Shown one piece after another: positions 17,857 to 55,517 of a DNA stretch of 64,000 nucleotides. Position numbers and translations under genes: made by a program. The notes below the pieces were generated by a model. The model did not search any database. It worked only from the letters and a program-made list of their open reading frames with translations, and was not told where the DNA came from. This DNA is from Acidobacteriota bacterium. GTDB taxonomy: Bacteria; Acidobacteriota; Vicinamibacteria; Vicinamibacterales; UBA2999. The stretch is from positions 19,855 to 83,854 of the forward strand of contig JAKFYH010000049.1 of assembly GCA_021730945.1 (NCBI GenBank), given 5' to 3'. Position 1 is the stretch's first letter; each line of letters opens with the position of its first letter.

Positions 17857-17887
17857 TCCCAAGTCCCAAGCCCCAAGTCCCAAGCCC
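17857..17887. repeat. Heptamer tandem repeat (YCCCAAG) x4 filling an intra-operon spacer
   Basis: The sequence TCCCAAG TCCCAAG CCCCAAG TCCCAAG CCC lies between the propeller-gene stop (17887) and the VWFA start (17850). Confidence 0.8.
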
Positions 17888-22235: not shown

Positions 22236-22259
22236 CCACTTCCAGCGTAGCCGAAATAT

Positions 22260-22336
22260 CCCTGATCCCTGATCCCTGATCCCTGATCCCTGATCCCTGA
22301 TCCCTGATCCCTGATCCCTGATCCCTGATCCCTGAT
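22260..22336. repeat. Perfect heptamer microsatellite (CCCTGAT) x11
   Basis: I counted 11 units directly. The array occupies 77 of the 112 bp between divergent start codons 22235 (-) and 22348 (+). On the minus strand it reads (GGGATCA)n. Confidence 0.95.
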
Positions 22337-39010: not shown

Positions 39011-39082
39011 GACGGCCAACGGCGGCCGCGTGGCCGGACAGCCGCGCGGATCAAGCCAGTCGGCAATCGACGACTCTCCAAT

Positions 39083-39110
39083 CCCCGATCCCTGATCCCC
39101 GATCCCTGAT
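39083..39110. repeat. Heptamer tandem repeat (CCCCGAT CCCTGAT) x2, same family as 22260-22336
   Basis: I counted the units directly. The array lies between the stop of the metX-hom fusion (39112) and the start of the PLP enzyme (39010). Confidence 0.85.
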
Positions 39111-43082: not shown

Positions 43083-43165
43083 ACGGTGTCAGACACCGTG
43101 CCAGAATCTGCGTACTGGACTTCGGACTTCGGACCCGCAGATTCTGCCGCGGTGTCAGACACCGT
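43083..43165. repeat. Composite palindromic element: two direct copies of CGGTGTCAGACACCG flanking an 11-bp inverted repeat
   Basis: ACGGTGTCAGACACCGT (43083-43099) and GCGGTGTCAGACACCGT (43149-43165) are the two copies. The inner stem pairs CAGAATCTGCG (43102-43112) with CGCAGATTCTG (43136-43146), and its loop contains (GGACTTC)x2. The element lies between convergent genes. Confidence 0.8.
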
Positions 43166-45492: not shown

Positions 45493-46002
45493 CTATTGGT
45501 CGCCCAGTGGACCCGTGCCTCCTTTGTATTTGACGTCCTGCAATTGCACACGAATGCCGTCCGGATCGGTGAAATACAGCTCTTTCGTGTTGCCGCGCAG
45601 CCGGATGCTGGCCTTGATGCCCTTGCCGGCGAGGGCCGTGAGCACCGCGTCAGCGTCGAAATTCTCCATGCCGAAGCAGACATGGTTGATGGAGCCGGTG
45701 GTCGCCCCGGCCTGGGCCGGGTAGATGCCGAGAAATCCCGCTCCGGTGCTGAGGTTGATGCCGGGGTCCTGGCGGGTGAGCAGGGGCAGCCCGAACACCC
45801 CCTGGTAGAAGTCCACCGACTTCTGCACGTTGGGCACAAAGACGCTGACATGGTTCATCGACTTGACCGCGCCGATCGGCGAAGTCTGCGCGGCCTGCGC
45901 CGCCGCCCCGGGAGCCGCCACCAGCAGGGCGAGCGCGCCCAGCAAGTCGCGGCGCGTCAGGCGGCCGGATTCGTATTGCTGCAAGAGGCTGTCAAGGTTC
46001 AT
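45493..46002 (-). CDS. Tat-exported VOC (glyoxalase/bleomycin-resistance/dioxygenase) family protein
   Basis: The leader is LTRRDLLGALALLVAAPGAAAQA. The VOC fold blocks are MNHVSVFVPNV and INHVCFGMENFD. Confidence 0.75.
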   Translation of the reverse strand: MNLDSLLQQYESGRLTRRDLLGALALLVAAPGAAAQAAQTSPIGAVKSMNHVSVFVPNVQKSVDFYQGVFGLPLLTRQDPGINLSTGAGFLGIYPAQAGATTGSINHVCFGMENFDADAVLTALAGKGIKASIRLRGNTKELYFTDPDGIRVQLQDVKYKGGTGPLGDQ

Positions 46003-46042
46003 AAGGACTCCTGCGGGGAACGATAGATCACTTGGGGCGGGT

Positions 46043-46128
46043 GTTGAGAGTTGAAAGTTGAAAGTTGAAAGTTGGCAGTTTCAGTTTCAGTTTCAGTTTC
46101 AGTTTCAGTTTCAGTTTCAGTTTCAGTT
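46043..46128. repeat. Left inverted arm: (GTTGARA)x5 followed by (GTTTCA)x8
   Basis: I counted the units directly. It is the reverse complement of the 46671-46762 arm. Confidence 0.9.
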
Positions 46129-46148
46129 GTGAGTGGTGAGTTCACGCC

Positions 46149-46562
46149 TTAGGGTTTGGAGCGGCGGCGGGGGTTCCCCTCTTGCTGTAGCCGGTTGGCG
46201 ACCTTGATCGCGATCGCTGCGAAGATCGCGCACAGCTGGCCGGCTTCATCCTCGGCCGCGGCCAATGGCTCGAATCCGTCGAGCTTCCCGAGCCGAAGCT
46301 TGACCAGGCACATCCGGGACTCCTTCGCTTCCCTCAGCGTGAGTTCGATTTTGTACAGGAAGTCGGCGGTGCTTGAGGCGTCCTCTGCTTCAACCAGATT
46401 GTTCGAAACCGAATCCGCCGCCCGCACCAGCTGACCCCAGACGGTGGCACTCGGAAGGTTGCTGAACTGGCCTGGACACGCCAGATTGACGCTGGTCGTA
46501 AACTTGAGCGCACGCTCCTGCAGAGCGAGGGTTCGCTGGCGGGCTGCGGTTATTGGTTTCAT
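46149..46562 (-). CDS. Four-helix-bundle protein (23S rRNA intervening-sequence protein family)
   Basis: The sequence ERALKFTTSV...VWGQLVRAADSVSNNLVEAEDASSTADFLYKIELTLREAKESRMCL fits the family pattern (QL.RAA.S...NI.EG......DF...L.IA.GS..E). The start is set at ATG 46562. The track ORF to 46736 reads into the repeat arm. Confidence 0.8.
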   Translation of the reverse strand: MKPITAARQRTLALQERALKFTTSVNLACPGQFSNLPSATVWGQLVRAADSVSNNLVEAEDASSTADFLYKIELTLREAKESRMCLVKLRLGKLDGFEPLAAAEDEAGQLCAIFAAIAIKVANRLQQEGNPRRRSKP

Positions 46563-46670
46563 GCTCTGGCATAAAGCAAACCAGGATCCAGCCGAAATCG
46601 CGAGAGAATGGCAGAACCGGCCACCACAGGTACGCACTTTCCGAGCAAGCCGCTGCCGTCCGACTGCGTA

Positions 46671-46762
46671 AAAACTGAAACTGCAACTAGAACTGCAACT
46701 GAAAACTGAAACTGAAACTGAAACTGAAACTGCCAACTTTCAACTGCCCACTTTCAACTCCT
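46671..46762. repeat. Right inverted arm: (CTGAAA/CTGCAA)n ... CTGCCAAC TTTCAAC TGCCCAC TTTCAAC
   Basis: It is the reverse complement of the left arm, with unit-number differences. Confidence 0.9.
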
Positions 46763-47763
46763 TGAAGTTCCTCTGGCTCAGCTTCCACCGTGGTTACGCC
46801 TGCCGCCACAGCGGCGCGTGCTGTTCGTCTGGCTGGCCGATTCCGGTCGAAGTCGAACGCGTCATTCCCATTCGACTACTGGCGGCTCGGCCAGACGCCG
46901 CGTGGCTGGCGCCGGTCGCAGACGCGCCCGATGACGTGGCCGGCACGCTGGCCGTCCGGCCAAATGGCGAGTGCACCTTCTTCCGCCTCCCGACAAGTAG
47001 TTCCCTCCCGACAAGCCGTGCCCTCCCGACAAGCCGTGCCCTCCCGTCAGGCTCCGGCTGTGACGTGTATCCCGCCCGCCCGTCAAGTTGTGCGCATTTC
47101 CCGTTTGTCTGCCTGATCGATCCGCGCGGCGTGCACGTCACCTTGTCGCACTACTGCCCGACGGCGGCCGCGATGCTGGTTGCGCACGACGGGCCGGTCG
47201 AGATCGTCGAAGGCCCGTCTCCGGTCGCCGGTTTCGAGATCCCGGAAGGACTTGACGCGCGCGAGTCGTTGCCACCCCTCGTCGCCGACGGCCCGGCGAG
47301 CGGCGCAGTGCCGCGTCTCATGTCGTGGGACGAGTTCAGCGCGTGGGAGCGAGCGGCGATCGGTGCCGGCGCGGTGACCGCTGATCCGCCGGCGATTGCG
47401 CTCTTTGCGCAGGCGCGCGCGGCGGTGCCGGCACCGTGGTCGTGGGCCGAAGCGCCCGCCGATCTCGAGCGCACCTGGCGGGCGCTGGTGGCGCCGGCCT
47501 GGTCCGTGCTGGCGCCGGTGGCAGAACGCTATCGCGCCGCCAAGGTGTTTGCGTCGTGGGCCGCCTACACCGACGAAGGCCTGGCGGCCGTGCTGCGGGT
47601 GGCCGACATCGCCGATGCGGTGCTGAAGGTCGAGGCGGTTCGTCAATGCGCGACCGCCGGCCGGGTGCTTGATGTCGAGCTGCTCACGGCAGCCATCCGG
47701 CAAAGCGACCTGCTGCTCGTTCATTACGCCGACGGCTGGGTGCTATCATCCGGCGCATTGTGA
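46762..47763 (+). CDS. YkgJ-like cysteine-cluster (CxxCxxCC-type) protein with C-terminal extension and internal 6-aa repeat
   Basis: The N-terminal motif is ACRHSGACCSSGW. Further on come CTFF and CDVYPARPSSCAHFPF. An 18-bp in-frame repeat lies at 46987-47058. The TTG start comes from the track and is uncertain. Confidence 0.6.
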   Translation: MKFLWLSFHRGYACRHSGACCSSGWPIPVEVERVIPIRLLAARPDAAWLAPVADAPDDVAGTLAVRPNGECTFFRLPTSSSLPTSRALPTSRALPSGSGCDVYPARPSSCAHFPFVCLIDPRGVHVTLSHYCPTAAAMLVAHDGPVEIVEGPSPVAGFEIPEGLDARESLPPLVADGPASGAVPRLMSWDEFSAWERAAIGAGAVTADPPAIALFAQARAAVPAPWSWAEAPADLERTWRALVAPAWSVLAPVAERYRAAKVFASWAAYTDEGLAAVLRVADIADAVLKVEAVRQCATAGRVLDVELLTAAIRQSDLLLVHYADGWVLSSGAL

Positions 47764-54273: not shown

Positions 54274-54655
54274 GCCCCAGACACAGATGCCGGGGCCGCA
54301 GACACAGACCGGGGCCGCAGATGACACAGATGACGCAGATCAGGGGCCTGGGGCCGCAGACACAGACCGGGGCCGCAGATGACACAGATGACGCAGATCA
54401 GGGGCCTGGGGCCGCTGACACAGACCGGGGCCGCAGATGACACAGATGACGCAGATCAAGGGGCCCGAGGCCGCAGACACAGACCGGGGCCGCAGATGAC
54501 ACAGATGACGCAGATCAGGGGCCCGAGGCCGCAGACACAGACCGGGGCCGCAGATGACACAGATGACGCAGATCAGGGGCCCAGGGCCGCAGACACGGAC
54601 CAGGGCCGCAGATGACAAAGATGACGCAGATCAAGGGGCTCAGGGCCGCAGACCT
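54274..54655. repeat. 58/59-bp tandem repeat array, about 6.5 units
   Basis: The unit is GCCGCAGACACAGACCGGGGCCGCAGATGACACAGATGACGCAGATCAGGGGCCTGGG. Unit starts are at 54295, 54353, 54411, 54470, 54528, 54586 and 54645. The whole unit repeats, so there are no unique spacers. Confidence 0.95.
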
Positions 54656-54741
54656 GTCCCGCCGTAGCTGGCAGCGCGAAGGCGGATGACGCAAGTGACG
54701 CAGATATCACGGTGCAGGACCGGCGGCGCGGCGAAGCCGCG

Positions 54742-54819
54742 TCTGTAGACCGGTGAAGCTCGAGGCGAGCAAGCGGAGCGATCGGGGCTTGTTCGCCTCG
54801 GGCTTCCCCGGTCTACAGA
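54742..54819. other. Long imperfect hairpin (32-bp arms, 29/32 paired, 14-nt loop)
   Basis: TCTGTAGACCGGTGAAGCTCGAGGCGAGCAAG (54742-54773) pairs with CTTGTTCGCCTCGGGCTTCCCCGGTCTACAGA (54788-54819). Smaller hairpins flank it (GCGGC-GAA-GCCGC and GGGCCGC-TAC-GCGGCCC). Confidence 0.8.
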
Positions 54820-54848
54820 TCGGGCCGCTACGCGGCCCCGCCGGTCGC

Positions 54849-55244
54849 TCACCGTGTCTGAGTCAGGATGAACCGCTTGTACTCCAGCTTGGCAGAGCCG
54901 AAGTTGAGCAGCAGTCCGCACTGACACGCGGACGAGGCGAGGTAGCTCAAGACCTGCGCCTGCTCCGCCGGCCCGGTGCCGAAGCGGGCCTTCACCTCGA
55001 CCACGACCGAGTCGAAGCAGACAAAATCCATGCGGTAATGCCCACGTAACGGGTGGGTCTTGTAAGCGACCCGACAGGGCGCTTCGGCCACAAACGGAAT
55101 GTCGCGCAGGCCGAACTCGATGGCGAGCGCGTCGCGGTAGAAGACTTCGAGAAAGCCGGATCCCAGGACTCGATGCACTTCCATCGCGGCGCCAATGATC
55201 GCAAACGTCCGAGGGTCGCTCGGTGCCGAGAAGTTCGTCGTCAT
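54849..55244 (-). CDS. GxxExxY protein (small PD-(D/E)XK-like family)
   Basis: The start is ATG 55244. The sequence is IIGAAMEVHRVLGSGFLEVFYRDALAIEFGLRDIPF...YRMDFVCFDSVVVEVKA...QVLSYL...GLLLNFG. The eponymous motif is G-F-L-E-V-F-Y. Confidence 0.85.
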   Translation of the reverse strand: MTTNFSAPSDPRTFAIIGAAMEVHRVLGSGFLEVFYRDALAIEFGLRDIPFVAEAPCRVAYKTHPLRGHYRMDFVCFDSVVVEVKARFGTGPAEQAQVLSYLASSACQCGLLLNFGSAKLEYKRFILTQTR

Positions 55245-55372
55245 GCCCTCACAGACGCAAACGGCGTGCCCAACGGGGTCCCAGAGAAAGCGCTCGCAAT
55301 TGGGGAGCGACGGGCGGCCCGGTACTTGGCTTGGTGGCGGAAATTGCAATGGTGAAATGACCTCAACATGGC

Positions 55373-55468
55373 AAATCCCGCAATCCCGCAATCCCGCAAT
55401 CCCGCAATCCCGCAATCCCGCAATCCCGCAATCCCGCAATCCCTAAATCACCCAATCACCAAATCAAG
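55373..55468. repeat. Octamer tandem repeat (CAATCCCG) about x8 perfect, decaying into AAATCACC/CAATCACC units
   Basis: I counted the units directly. The array lies between divergent genes with starts at 55244 (-) and 55518 (+). It is followed at 55468-55500 by an inverted partial copy of the 58-mer unit. Confidence 0.9.
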
Positions 55469-55517
55469 ATCTGCGTAATCTGTGTCATCTGTGGCCCTGG
55501 TGTAGTTAGGATGTCGC

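Follow-up and report, generated by a model that had tools for sequence, protein, structure and literature searches.

Inverted tandem-repeat arms around a four-helix-bundle gene of an Acidobacteriota bacterium and their recurrence in small cassettes of other bacteria

Small open reading frames (ORFs) of the S23p type have been known since 1993, and the cyanobacterial heptamer repeats called STRR since 1990. In Coxiella burnetii, the intervening sequence (IVS) of the 23S rRNA is 428 nt long, has a 28-bp terminal inverted-repeat stem, contains the S23p ORF, has a GC content below that of the genome and is cut by RNase III; one proposal sees in it a mobile element, either still active or left as a remnant, with an ORF that serves mobility (PMC4990558). 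The S23p homologue of Xanthomonas forms a homopentameric toroid (PMC4990558). The present analysis concerns a gene of this protein family outside rRNA, at positions 46043-46762 of a 64,000-nt stretch (hereafter, the window) of an Acidobacteriota bacterium of the Vicinamibacterales (contig JAKFYH010000049.1, positions 19,855 to 83,854, forward strand), together with its relatives in other genomes. These loci share one anatomy, namely one small ORF between two inverted arrays of short tandem repeats, the period and copy number of which are specific to the protein family: approximately 4-5 heptamers for four-helix-bundle (S23p/Avd-like) genes and approximately 3 nonamers (CGCAGATTA) for GxxExxY genes. 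ORF and arms travel together, the ends are sharp, and the outer units are kept mirrored while the inner units drift by slippage.

Related genes were described in other settings. Avd, the accessory protein of diversity-generating retroelements (DGRs), is a pentameric nucleic-acid-binding protein with a homologous four-helix-bundle fold (PMC10053308; PF05635/cd16375). PF05635 genes were noted inside cas operons, with a 23S_rRNA_IVP gene wedged between cmr3 and cmr2 (PMC3936711), and were flagged as CRISPR-array-associated in a figure legend (PMC10910872). It is probable that CRISPR-discovery pipelines flag PF05635 owing to the repeat arrays of such genes themselves. Heptamer repeats of the unit TAACTGA were reported from Beggiatoaceae, cyanobacteria and Bacteroidetes, with 'no mechanism evident' (PMC4679880).

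The cassette at 46043-46762

The cassette consists of the following parts, given in the direction of the gene.

46671..46762, minus strand: 5' arm (upstream on the gene sense strand); the outer GAGTTGAAAGTGGGCAGTTGAAAGTTGGCAG mirrors the other arm, and the inner part is made of degenerate CAGTTT/CAGTTG hexamers
46149..46562, minus strand: gene for a 137-aa four-helix-bundle protein (TIGR02436; PF05635 / S23p / Avd-like family), assigned from the ORF and family models
46043..46128, minus strand: 3' arm, beginning 20 nt past the stop codon; on the plus strand, (GTTGARA)x4.6, GTTGGCA and (GTTTCA)x8.8

Using Tandem Repeats Finder (TRF), (GTTGAAA)x4.6 at 46043-46074 and (CAGTTT)x8.8 with 100% matches at 46076-46128 were detected on the left side, and degenerate (AAACTG)x10 at 46672-46732 and (CAACTTT)/14-mer units at 46728-46759 on the right side, each arm being approximately 85-90 nt long and made of 6-7-nt tandem units. 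The best inverted pair (46048-46105 and 46703-46760) extended over 58 nt with 95% complementarity and a spacing of 597 nt, and was the longest inverted repeat in the window when repeats within 1.5 kb were considered. The arm-to-arm alignment score was 122 against 18.8 ± 2.5 for shuffles (z ~41). TRF and the inverted pair confirmed the small four-helix-bundle gene between inverted microsatellite arms that had been noticed in a sequence-only reading of this stretch. The same reading had described the arms as reverse complements with different unit numbers; this description held for the outer approximately 30 nt, which are near-perfect mirror images, and failed for the inner parts, which slipped separately to leave perfect GTTTCA units on one side and degenerate units on the other. 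Folding of the cassette as RNA on both strands, which it had recommended, gave a long terminal stem (z ~-10); inverted repeats capable of an ORF-enclosing stem, a mark of IVS elements, are thus present at the cassette termini.

The 137-aa protein matched TIGR02436 ('four helix bundle protein') with 39.4 bits, above the curated cutoff of 24, and Pfam PF05635 with 32.1 bits, slightly below the gathering score of 33.8. A precomputed PF05635 match was present in 120/120 of the homologues listed, and the profile of the protein's family matched PDB 2rld (E=5e-11), which has 5 chains. The TIGR02436 and 2rld matches uphold the earlier assignment to the 23S rRNA IVS protein family. Exact-sequence database look-up of the protein returned no record. 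Between the arms, an ORF check revealed no further credible gene besides 46149-46562, as had been stated.

A VOC/glyoxalase gene flanks the cassette on one side and a YkgJ-family Fe-S protein gene on the other, and the GC content of the cassette is 0.51-0.61 against 0.67 for the whole window. The cassette sits between protein-coding genes and not inside an rRNA helix (h9/h25/h45). The Rfam scan of 45900-46900 gave no rRNA and no Rfam family, the scan of 8 related loci gave no match, and rRNA motifs were absent in all 266 related loci, with no rRNA-embedded copies among them; the absence of an Rfam match and the VOC and YkgJ flanks agree with the independence from rRNA proposed earlier. A DGR context was ruled out, since neither a reverse transcriptase nor a template/variable repeat pair was found near the cassette (neighbours: VOC, YkgJ, amidohydrolase and two proteins without a Pfam match). 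PADLOC defence models matched neither this protein nor the GxxExxY cargo protein described below, and tblastn against plasmids gave no match.

Recurrence of the arms and a second cassette type

Within Vicinamibacterales, 96 loci of close relatives of the four-helix-bundle gene were fetched, 72 of them with enough flanking sequence. Significant inverted arms were found in 56/72, positioned as in the window: the 5' arm ends approximately 110-150 nt before the ATG, and the 3' arm begins no more than approximately 60 nt past the stop codon. The units were AGTT-containing 6-7-mers (GTTGAAA, GTTCAAA, GTTACAA, GTTGACA, GTTTCA) and varied by locus. The outer 30-45 nt or so were near-perfect mirrors, and further inward each arm had its own slippage expansion, as in locus L024 (GTGGCA versus GTKCCA). 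When the outer 40 nt were compared in four loci with a common YkgJ neighbour, identity was 0.91 within a locus versus 0.70-0.72 between orthologous loci; therefore, the arms of one locus evolve in concert. For the homologues P0079 and P0092, the annotated C-termini (...TETVKLETET and ...TET) correspond to the translated ACTGAA-type 3' arm, and the extension is a gene-calling artefact due to the repeats.

A profile search yielded 4514 family members. A first scan with a single protein query returned one locus only; a scan seeded with six representatives, 25-45% identical to the window's family, returned 80 loci, 69 with enough flank, from Cyanobacteria (Nostoc, Anabaena, Scytonema, Cyanothece), Bacteroidota, Chlorobi, Chloroflexi, Planctomycetota, Verrucomicrobia, Nitrospirae, Gamma- and Deltaproteobacteria and more. 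Significant inverted arms were present in 58/69 of these loci, in >15 phyla. The arrays had a period of 7 in 53/61 cases upstream and 62/66 downstream (115/127 by TRF), those beside the Nostoc, Anabaena, Scytonema and Cyanothece genes included, with a median of 4.3-4.4 copies (approximately 30 nt), and the upstream and downstream units of one locus were identical at a mean of 6.0 of 7 positions. Arms built from microsatellites, earlier regarded as unusual, are thus the rule for the four-helix-bundle family outside the clade as well.

Arm pairing was locus-specific: the median score was 39 for matched pairs versus 19 for arms of mismatched loci, and 49/69 matched pairs exceeded the mismatched 95th percentile, which shows that the arms are not generic A-rich/T-rich flanks. 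Protein identity was 54.6% among loci with a common arm unit versus 47.0% (0/2000 permutations), and the unit AAAAGGC was found in Ignavibacteriota, Cyanobacteria, Verrucomicrobia, Deltaproteobacteria and Chloroflexia. From this unit-protein association and the presence of the same unit in several phyla, it follows that ORF and arms move and evolve together across phyla; the arm unit tracks the encoded protein lineage and not the host phylum.

The window contains a second cassette (54290-55501), in which a GxxExxY gene is arranged in the same way, with a 34-nt inverted repeat at 91% on both sides.

55468..55501, minus strand: 5' arm, CCAGGGCCACAGATGACACAGATTACGCAGATC, with CAGAT-type 9-mers
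55374..55457, minus strand: leader octamer microsatellite (GGGATTGC)x9, an expansion of a TTGC motif like that of box A (next section)
55257..55270, minus strand: predicted sigma-54 core promoter, near-consensus, GGCACGCCGTTTGC (GGCACG-CCGT-TTGC), 12 nt before the ATG
54849..55244, minus strand: gene for a 131-aa GxxExxY protein (TIGR04256, 121 bits; PF13366, PD-(D/E)XK-like)
54290..54653, minus strand: 3' arm, a 58-nt unit x6.2, each copy with a 34-nt match (91%) to the 5' arm

For GxxExxY relatives, 80 loci were fetched, 75 with enough flank, from Acidobacteriota, Planctomycetota, Nitrospirota, NC10, Verrucomicrobia, Armatimonadetes, Chloroflexi and others, and inverted arms were present in 55/75, across phyla. 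The arms carry approximately 3 copies of the conserved 9-mer upstream and its reverse complement downstream; TRF gave a period of 9 in 43/53 and 51/57 arrays, with 2.9 copies (interquartile range 2.7-3.0). The 9-mer and the end sequence ATCCGCAGATT are kept from Acidobacteriota to Planctomycetota, Nitrospirota, NC10 and Verrucomicrobia, with proteins only approximately 50% identical. Both cassette ends read ...ATCCGCAGATT in 30 loci, with ...(A/T)ATCCGCAGATTnCGCAGATT... on both sides and unrelated sequence beyond. The sequence-only reading had named copies of the gene lacking inverted flanks as evidence that would speak against it; arms accompanied 56/72, 58/69 and 55/75 loci of the three sets, so that the proposal withstood this check and the arms count as an intrinsic, conserved component of the cassette.

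Further tandem arrays beyond the arms were noted near four-helix-bundle genes (period 7, 39 arrays; period 9, 23 arrays; loci L187-L266) and near GxxExxY genes (period 9, 43 arrays; period 7, 27 arrays; loci L097-L176), suggesting that the two cassette types cluster or stand in tandem. Directly past the GxxExxY stop codon of the window and before the 3' arm, an imperfect 54-nt hairpin (54721-54840; 78% complementary, 12-nt loop) was observed, and in the relative L098 the gene is followed by a similar sequence. A 30-nt inverted repeat (43083-43165; 90% complementary), the 23-nt loop of which contains (GGACTTC)x2.6, lies between convergent genes; its arms contain CAGAATCTGCG / CGCAGATTCTG, resembling the GxxExxY arm unit and leader box B, and it could be an ORF-less cassette remnant or a plain bidirectional terminator.

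The leader and its predicted sigma-54-type promoter

Leader boxes were derived from an alignment (A2) of 40 loci, in which candidate boxes A, B and C were found. The corresponding elements of the window are as follows.

46665..46678, minus strand: leader box A, at the inner end of the 5' arm; clade consensus GCAGnnnnTGC(C/G)A, window copy degenerate (TCAGTTTTTACGCA); candidate activator-binding site
46629..46643, minus strand: leader box B; clade consensus ..(C/T)TGCG(A/T)(A/T)C, window copy CGGAAAGTGCGTACC; candidate activator-binding site
46576..46589, minus strand: predicted sigma-54-type core promoter GGATCCTGGTTTGC (GG-N8-TTGC; GG and GC 12 nt apart), ending 13 nt before the ATG

In the clade alignment, 88% of loci have GG at -27/-26 and 80-90% have TTGC at -17..-14; GC directly precedes the ATG. 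Using a fixed-pattern test against control windows, GG-N8-TTGC was detected before the gene in 91% of the clade's four-helix-bundle loci versus 2-3% of control windows (clade control, 2.2%). Among GxxExxY loci, the same pattern was present in 7/7 from Vicinamibacterales and in 9/20 from other Acidobacteriota; among four-helix-bundle loci of other phyla, it was present in 1%. The GG and GC are exactly 12 nt apart, the -12 box reads TTGC(A/T) and the distance to the gene is fixed in the clade, as is characteristic of a sigma-54 core. Such a near-leaderless expression module, common to both Vicinamibacterales cassette types, would be a further unusual feature. Five loci labelled cyanobacterium, Acidimicrobiia or Bifidobacteriaceae (L107, L108, L110, L112 and L113) are Vicinamibacterales-type cassettes with sigma-54 leaders, which suggests that their contigs are mis-binned or mislabelled.

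No sigma-70 promoter or intrinsic terminator was predicted in the cassette, and a simple promoter weight matrix applied to the window was dropped as unspecific (35 matches versus approximately 31 in shuffles). RNAalifold on 40 aligned leaders found no consensus pairs; with this result and no Rfam match, a structured RNA leader or riboswitch-like element was abandoned for the sigma-54 reading. A start-codon hairpin (TTGCAcc...ggTGCATG) was weak, only 72% paired and mostly via invariant bases. A local hairpin formed by pairing of GAAACTGCGA with the last arm unit was likewise set aside, the alignment giving conserved boxes and no covariation. From the promoter geometry, the predicted transcription start coincides with the ATG or lies no more than 2 nt from it, which would yield a leaderless or nearly leaderless mRNA. 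Because the sigma-54-type promoter sits between the 5' arm and the ATG, the predicted main mRNA probably lacks the 5' arm in the window's clade.

Interpretation and comparison with described systems

With slightly better than even confidence, the window locus is interpreted as one of a widespread group of portable, horizontally spreading mini-cassettes, free-standing counterparts of the ORF-bearing 23S rRNA IVSs, in which the arrays would be sequence-specific recognition sites acting as terminal inverted repeats. This mechanism is proposed because unit and protein co-vary, the unit is conserved, the copy number varies little, the ends are sharply set and the arms, as described below, show no tolerance of wobble. 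The arrays would most likely be bound by the oligomer that the cassette itself encodes, each repeat taking up one subunit (the solved homologues being pentamers), and the binding would serve spread and/or autoregulation, not primarily the upkeep of an RNA stem. In a cassette inside a host transcript, as would apply to most members outside the clade, the arms would also pair into an RNase III-cleavable stem, and the insertion would thereby be harmless. In Vicinamibacterales, both cassette types would have acquired a leader of approximately 120 nt, in which conserved boxes are present and a sigma-54-type promoter directly adjoins the ATG, the gene would be transcribed alone as a nearly leaderless mRNA without the 5' arm, and the arms would have been expanded by slippage to 85-90 nt.

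A different function of the arms, rather unlikely in our estimate, would be that of an RNA stem: both arms are transcribed and pair, RNase III cuts, and the ORF RNA is released or stabilised as in the rRNA IVS. Very stable stems are predicted for both strands, the usual arm length of 26-31 nt suits an RNase III substrate, and in the homologues located in rRNA this enzyme cuts at a terminal stem of 28 bp (PMC4990558). Outside the clade, moreover, the genes tend to share the orientation of the upstream gene (59:15 for four-helix-bundle and 51:24 for GxxExxY loci, versus 36:34 inside the clade, neighbour calls being crude in high-GC DNA) and little space is left for a promoter of their own; cassettes there probably ride host transcripts, so the arms would be in RNA. 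This contrast in orientation also agrees with the promoter reading for the clade. In Vicinamibacterales, however, the predicted promoter lies inside the arms and the 5' arm should go untranscribed, yet the arms are kept and even enlarged, and no sigma-70 promoter was predicted upstream. When arm mismatches were examined for G·U compatibility, the counts were 90 versus 70 (Vicinamibacterales four-helix-bundle set), 62 versus 56 (GxxExxY set) and 38 versus 35 (multi-phylum four-helix-bundle set), so that there is no G·U excess on either strand in any of the three sets; the mismatches were mostly of the transversion type. In a visual comparison of GxxExxY loci, variable 9-mer positions were often unmatched between arms and the core was fixed, which would be expected of a motif array and not of a covarying helix. 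A stem would also leave the cross-phylum unit conservation and the family-specific period unexplained. RNA pairing as the selected function of the arms at the window locus is thus doubtful and not supported, and the RNA-processed stem of the sequence-only reading is called into question by the position of the promoter inside the arms (91% of the clade versus approximately 2% of controls) and by the missing G·U excess.

The arms might instead be local regulatory arrays, that is, half-sites for a host regulator (e.g. a sigma-54 activator also binding boxes A and B) that work as enhancer or insulator and are unrelated to mobility. In keeping with this, box A (GCAGnnnnTGC) is a direct continuation of the arm units (GCAGTT), and the position of the 5' arm (-120 to -200) is one usual for activator sites. 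The octamer expansion of the second cassette derives from a box-like motif, and heptamer repeats of Nostoc alter promoter behaviour, with a proposed binding partner (bioRxiv 10.1101/2022.06.06.494920). Arms are present, however, also where the sigma-54 core is absent (the core occurs in 1% of other-phyla loci), cyanobacteria included; their units differ between lineages of one phylum and follow the cassette protein, and the mirror-image 3' arm, the sharp ends and the apparent presence/absence polymorphism would be left unexplained; the probability of this alternative is considered low. Just as improbable is a DNA-level role, in which the arms pair as single-stranded DNA or a cruciform for a host or cassette nuclease, or invert the segment by homologous recombination. 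DNA pairing agrees with the missing wobble tolerance, evolution of the outer arms is concerted, and one cargo family (GxxExxY, PF13366) has a nuclease-type PD-(D/E)XK-like fold; against this, extrusion of a hairpin or cruciform is unlikely with a spacer of approximately 500-600 nt, the four-helix-bundle cargo has no nuclease features, inverted-orientation alleles were not observed, and the data are compatible with two identical binding arrays, for which pairing is not required. Other, unlinked heptamer and octamer microsatellites in the window (17857, 22258, 39081) could point to a non-functional by-product, slippage hot spots flanking a gene by chance in a repeat-rich genome. This explanation is extremely improbable and effectively refuted, because the architecture recurs in 169/216 analysed loci across phyla with family-specific period, copy number, orientation and position.

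Portability of the cassettes was examined at the YkgJ junction, comparison of which in relatives had been suggested in the sequence-only reading. In relatives with a YkgJ protein 55-70% identical, the YkgJ-Amidohydro_3 pair is kept, Aminotran_1_2 or AA_permease stands directly upstream, and the cassette is absent; one such locus (L178) belongs to the same genome assembly as L098, which carries a GxxExxY cassette elsewhere. The junction suggests a presence/absence polymorphism, although the upstream neighbour differs too. Defined inverted ends, as in transposable elements, are present in the form of mirror-image outer arm units, and no recognisable transposase was found, the only ORF being the small cargo protein. 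The possible mobility proposed earlier finds support as portability, by the absence at the YkgJ junction and by the arm unit following the protein across phyla, and is not accompanied by signs of recent transposition. Within the N-terminal part of the window's YkgJ-family ORF, an 18-nt tandem repeat x3.4 (CCTCCCGACAAGCCGTGC; 46986-47046) encodes LPTSRA repeats; the NCBI record of the protein begins later (232 aa), and homologues have approximately 307 aa.

Several points weigh against portable cassettes with recognition-site termini. The YkgJ junction offers no clean empty site, the comparison of GxxExxY ends revealed no target-site duplication (no direct repeats outside the cassette ends), near-identical cassette copies within one genome were not found, and 11-20 loci per set have no detectable arms. 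Shared descent alone could explain the unit-protein correlation. The sigma-54 promoter and the leaderless start are predictions, binding of the arms by any partner is what we infer from the sequences, and the agreement of the 4.4-copy median with a pentamer is at present a numerical coincidence. We know of no sequence-specific nucleic-acid binding or catalytic activity of the four-helix-bundle fold. Finally, the arms are approximately 88% Watson-Crick complementary, and pairing in RNA or single-stranded DNA is hence still feasible.

As far as found, tandem-repeat arms with family-specific period and copy number are new, and they concern two unrelated 'IVS protein' families across phyla: four-helix-bundle genes are physically coupled to heptamer arrays in >15 phyla, and the unrelated GxxExxY family to a conserved nonamer. 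This coupling offers a candidate ligand for each protein, a definition of the element ends and an explanation why only such genes are tolerated inside rRNA and operons. A bolder extension, which is speculative and on balance improbable, is that S23p/Avd-like pentamers are sequence-specific binders of bacterial tandem heptamers, one subunit per heptamer, that GxxExxY proteins are likewise binders of CAGAT nonamers, and that solo arrays are trans targets. If this were true, the gene of every paralogue would be flagged on either side by the repeat that the paralogue recognises, which would serve autoregulation and/or mobilisation of the cassette, solo arrays before ordinary genes (STRR, TAACTGA, those at Nostoc recF/recO and possibly the ATCCCTG type of the window) would be targets in trans, and a portable, programmable repeat-code regulon would have spread across bacterial phyla. 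The coupling in itself brings together two puzzles, namely the role of rRNA-IVS ORFs and their thousands of non-rRNA homologues, and the origin and role of bacterial heptamer repeats, a binding partner of which is sought in recent work.

Solo intergenic heptamers that are not paired around a small ORF were observed in the window: a perfect (ATCCCTG)x11.3 at 22258-22336, directly before a start codon, and (TCCCAAG)x4 and (ATCCCYG)x4 (17857-17887; 39081-39110). They have a GGGAT core in common with the leader octamer of the second cassette, and a system like that of the cassettes may act on them as solo targets.

Among described repeats, the intergenic heptamers (cyanobacterial STRR; TAACTGA; Nostoc TTCAAAA/GACYAAT) are likewise tandem, present in 2-6 copies and oriented to start codons, and have a patchy cross-phylum distribution suggesting horizontal transfer (PMC4679880; bioRxiv 10.1101/2022.06.06.494920). 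The four-helix-bundle arms share their character as few-copy, intergenic, 7-nt tandem arrays. The unit AAAATTC (a rotation of TTCAAAA) is the arm unit in Scytonema, Nostoc and Planctomycetota cassettes and was the only identity seen with a published unit; neither the classical STRR1-3 units nor TAACTGA was recovered as an arm unit. The published repeats are direct-repeat sets near ordinary genes, unlike the inverted pair bracketing an ORF. In the literature covered, to which most subscription journals do not belong, no description was found that connects four-helix-bundle genes, or an inverted pair bracketing an ORF, with heptamer repeats, and no paper was found that contains the GxxExxY arm sequence.

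Transposons with terminal inverted repeats and miniature inverted-repeat transposable elements resemble the cassettes in having sharp inverted ends composed of several copies of short motifs (Tn7 ends, subterminal motifs of plant Ac/En) and in co-variation of cargo and ends, and the cassettes may share their presence/absence polymorphism; unlike them, the cassettes show no recognisable transposase, target-site duplication or evidence of a recent multi-copy burst. The window cassette also differs from the setting of Avd in that no reverse transcriptase or template/variable repeat pair is nearby, and Avd genes are not described with inverted-array flanks. In TRAP, 11 subunits bind 11 spaced GAG triplets. 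TRAP provides an analogy only, that of a homo-oligomeric toroid with one repeat unit per subunit, here a pentamer versus approximately 4.4 heptamers; the four-helix-bundle fold is unrelated to it, and repeat binding by the four-helix-bundle family is only proposed.

Differences from the ORF-bearing 23S rRNA IVS (Leptospira; Coxiella burnetii) are that the window cassette lies between protein-coding genes, that its arms are 6-7-nt tandem repeats expanded to 85-90 nt, and that it has its own predicted sigma-54-type promoter inside the arms, RNase III excision being doubtful here. The two are alike in cargo of the same protein family, in size class (approximately 430-720 nt) and in the position of the ORF inside terminal inverted repeats of approximately 28 bp or more, and both have a lower GC content than the host, occur sporadically and are suspected of being selfish or mobile (PMC4990558).

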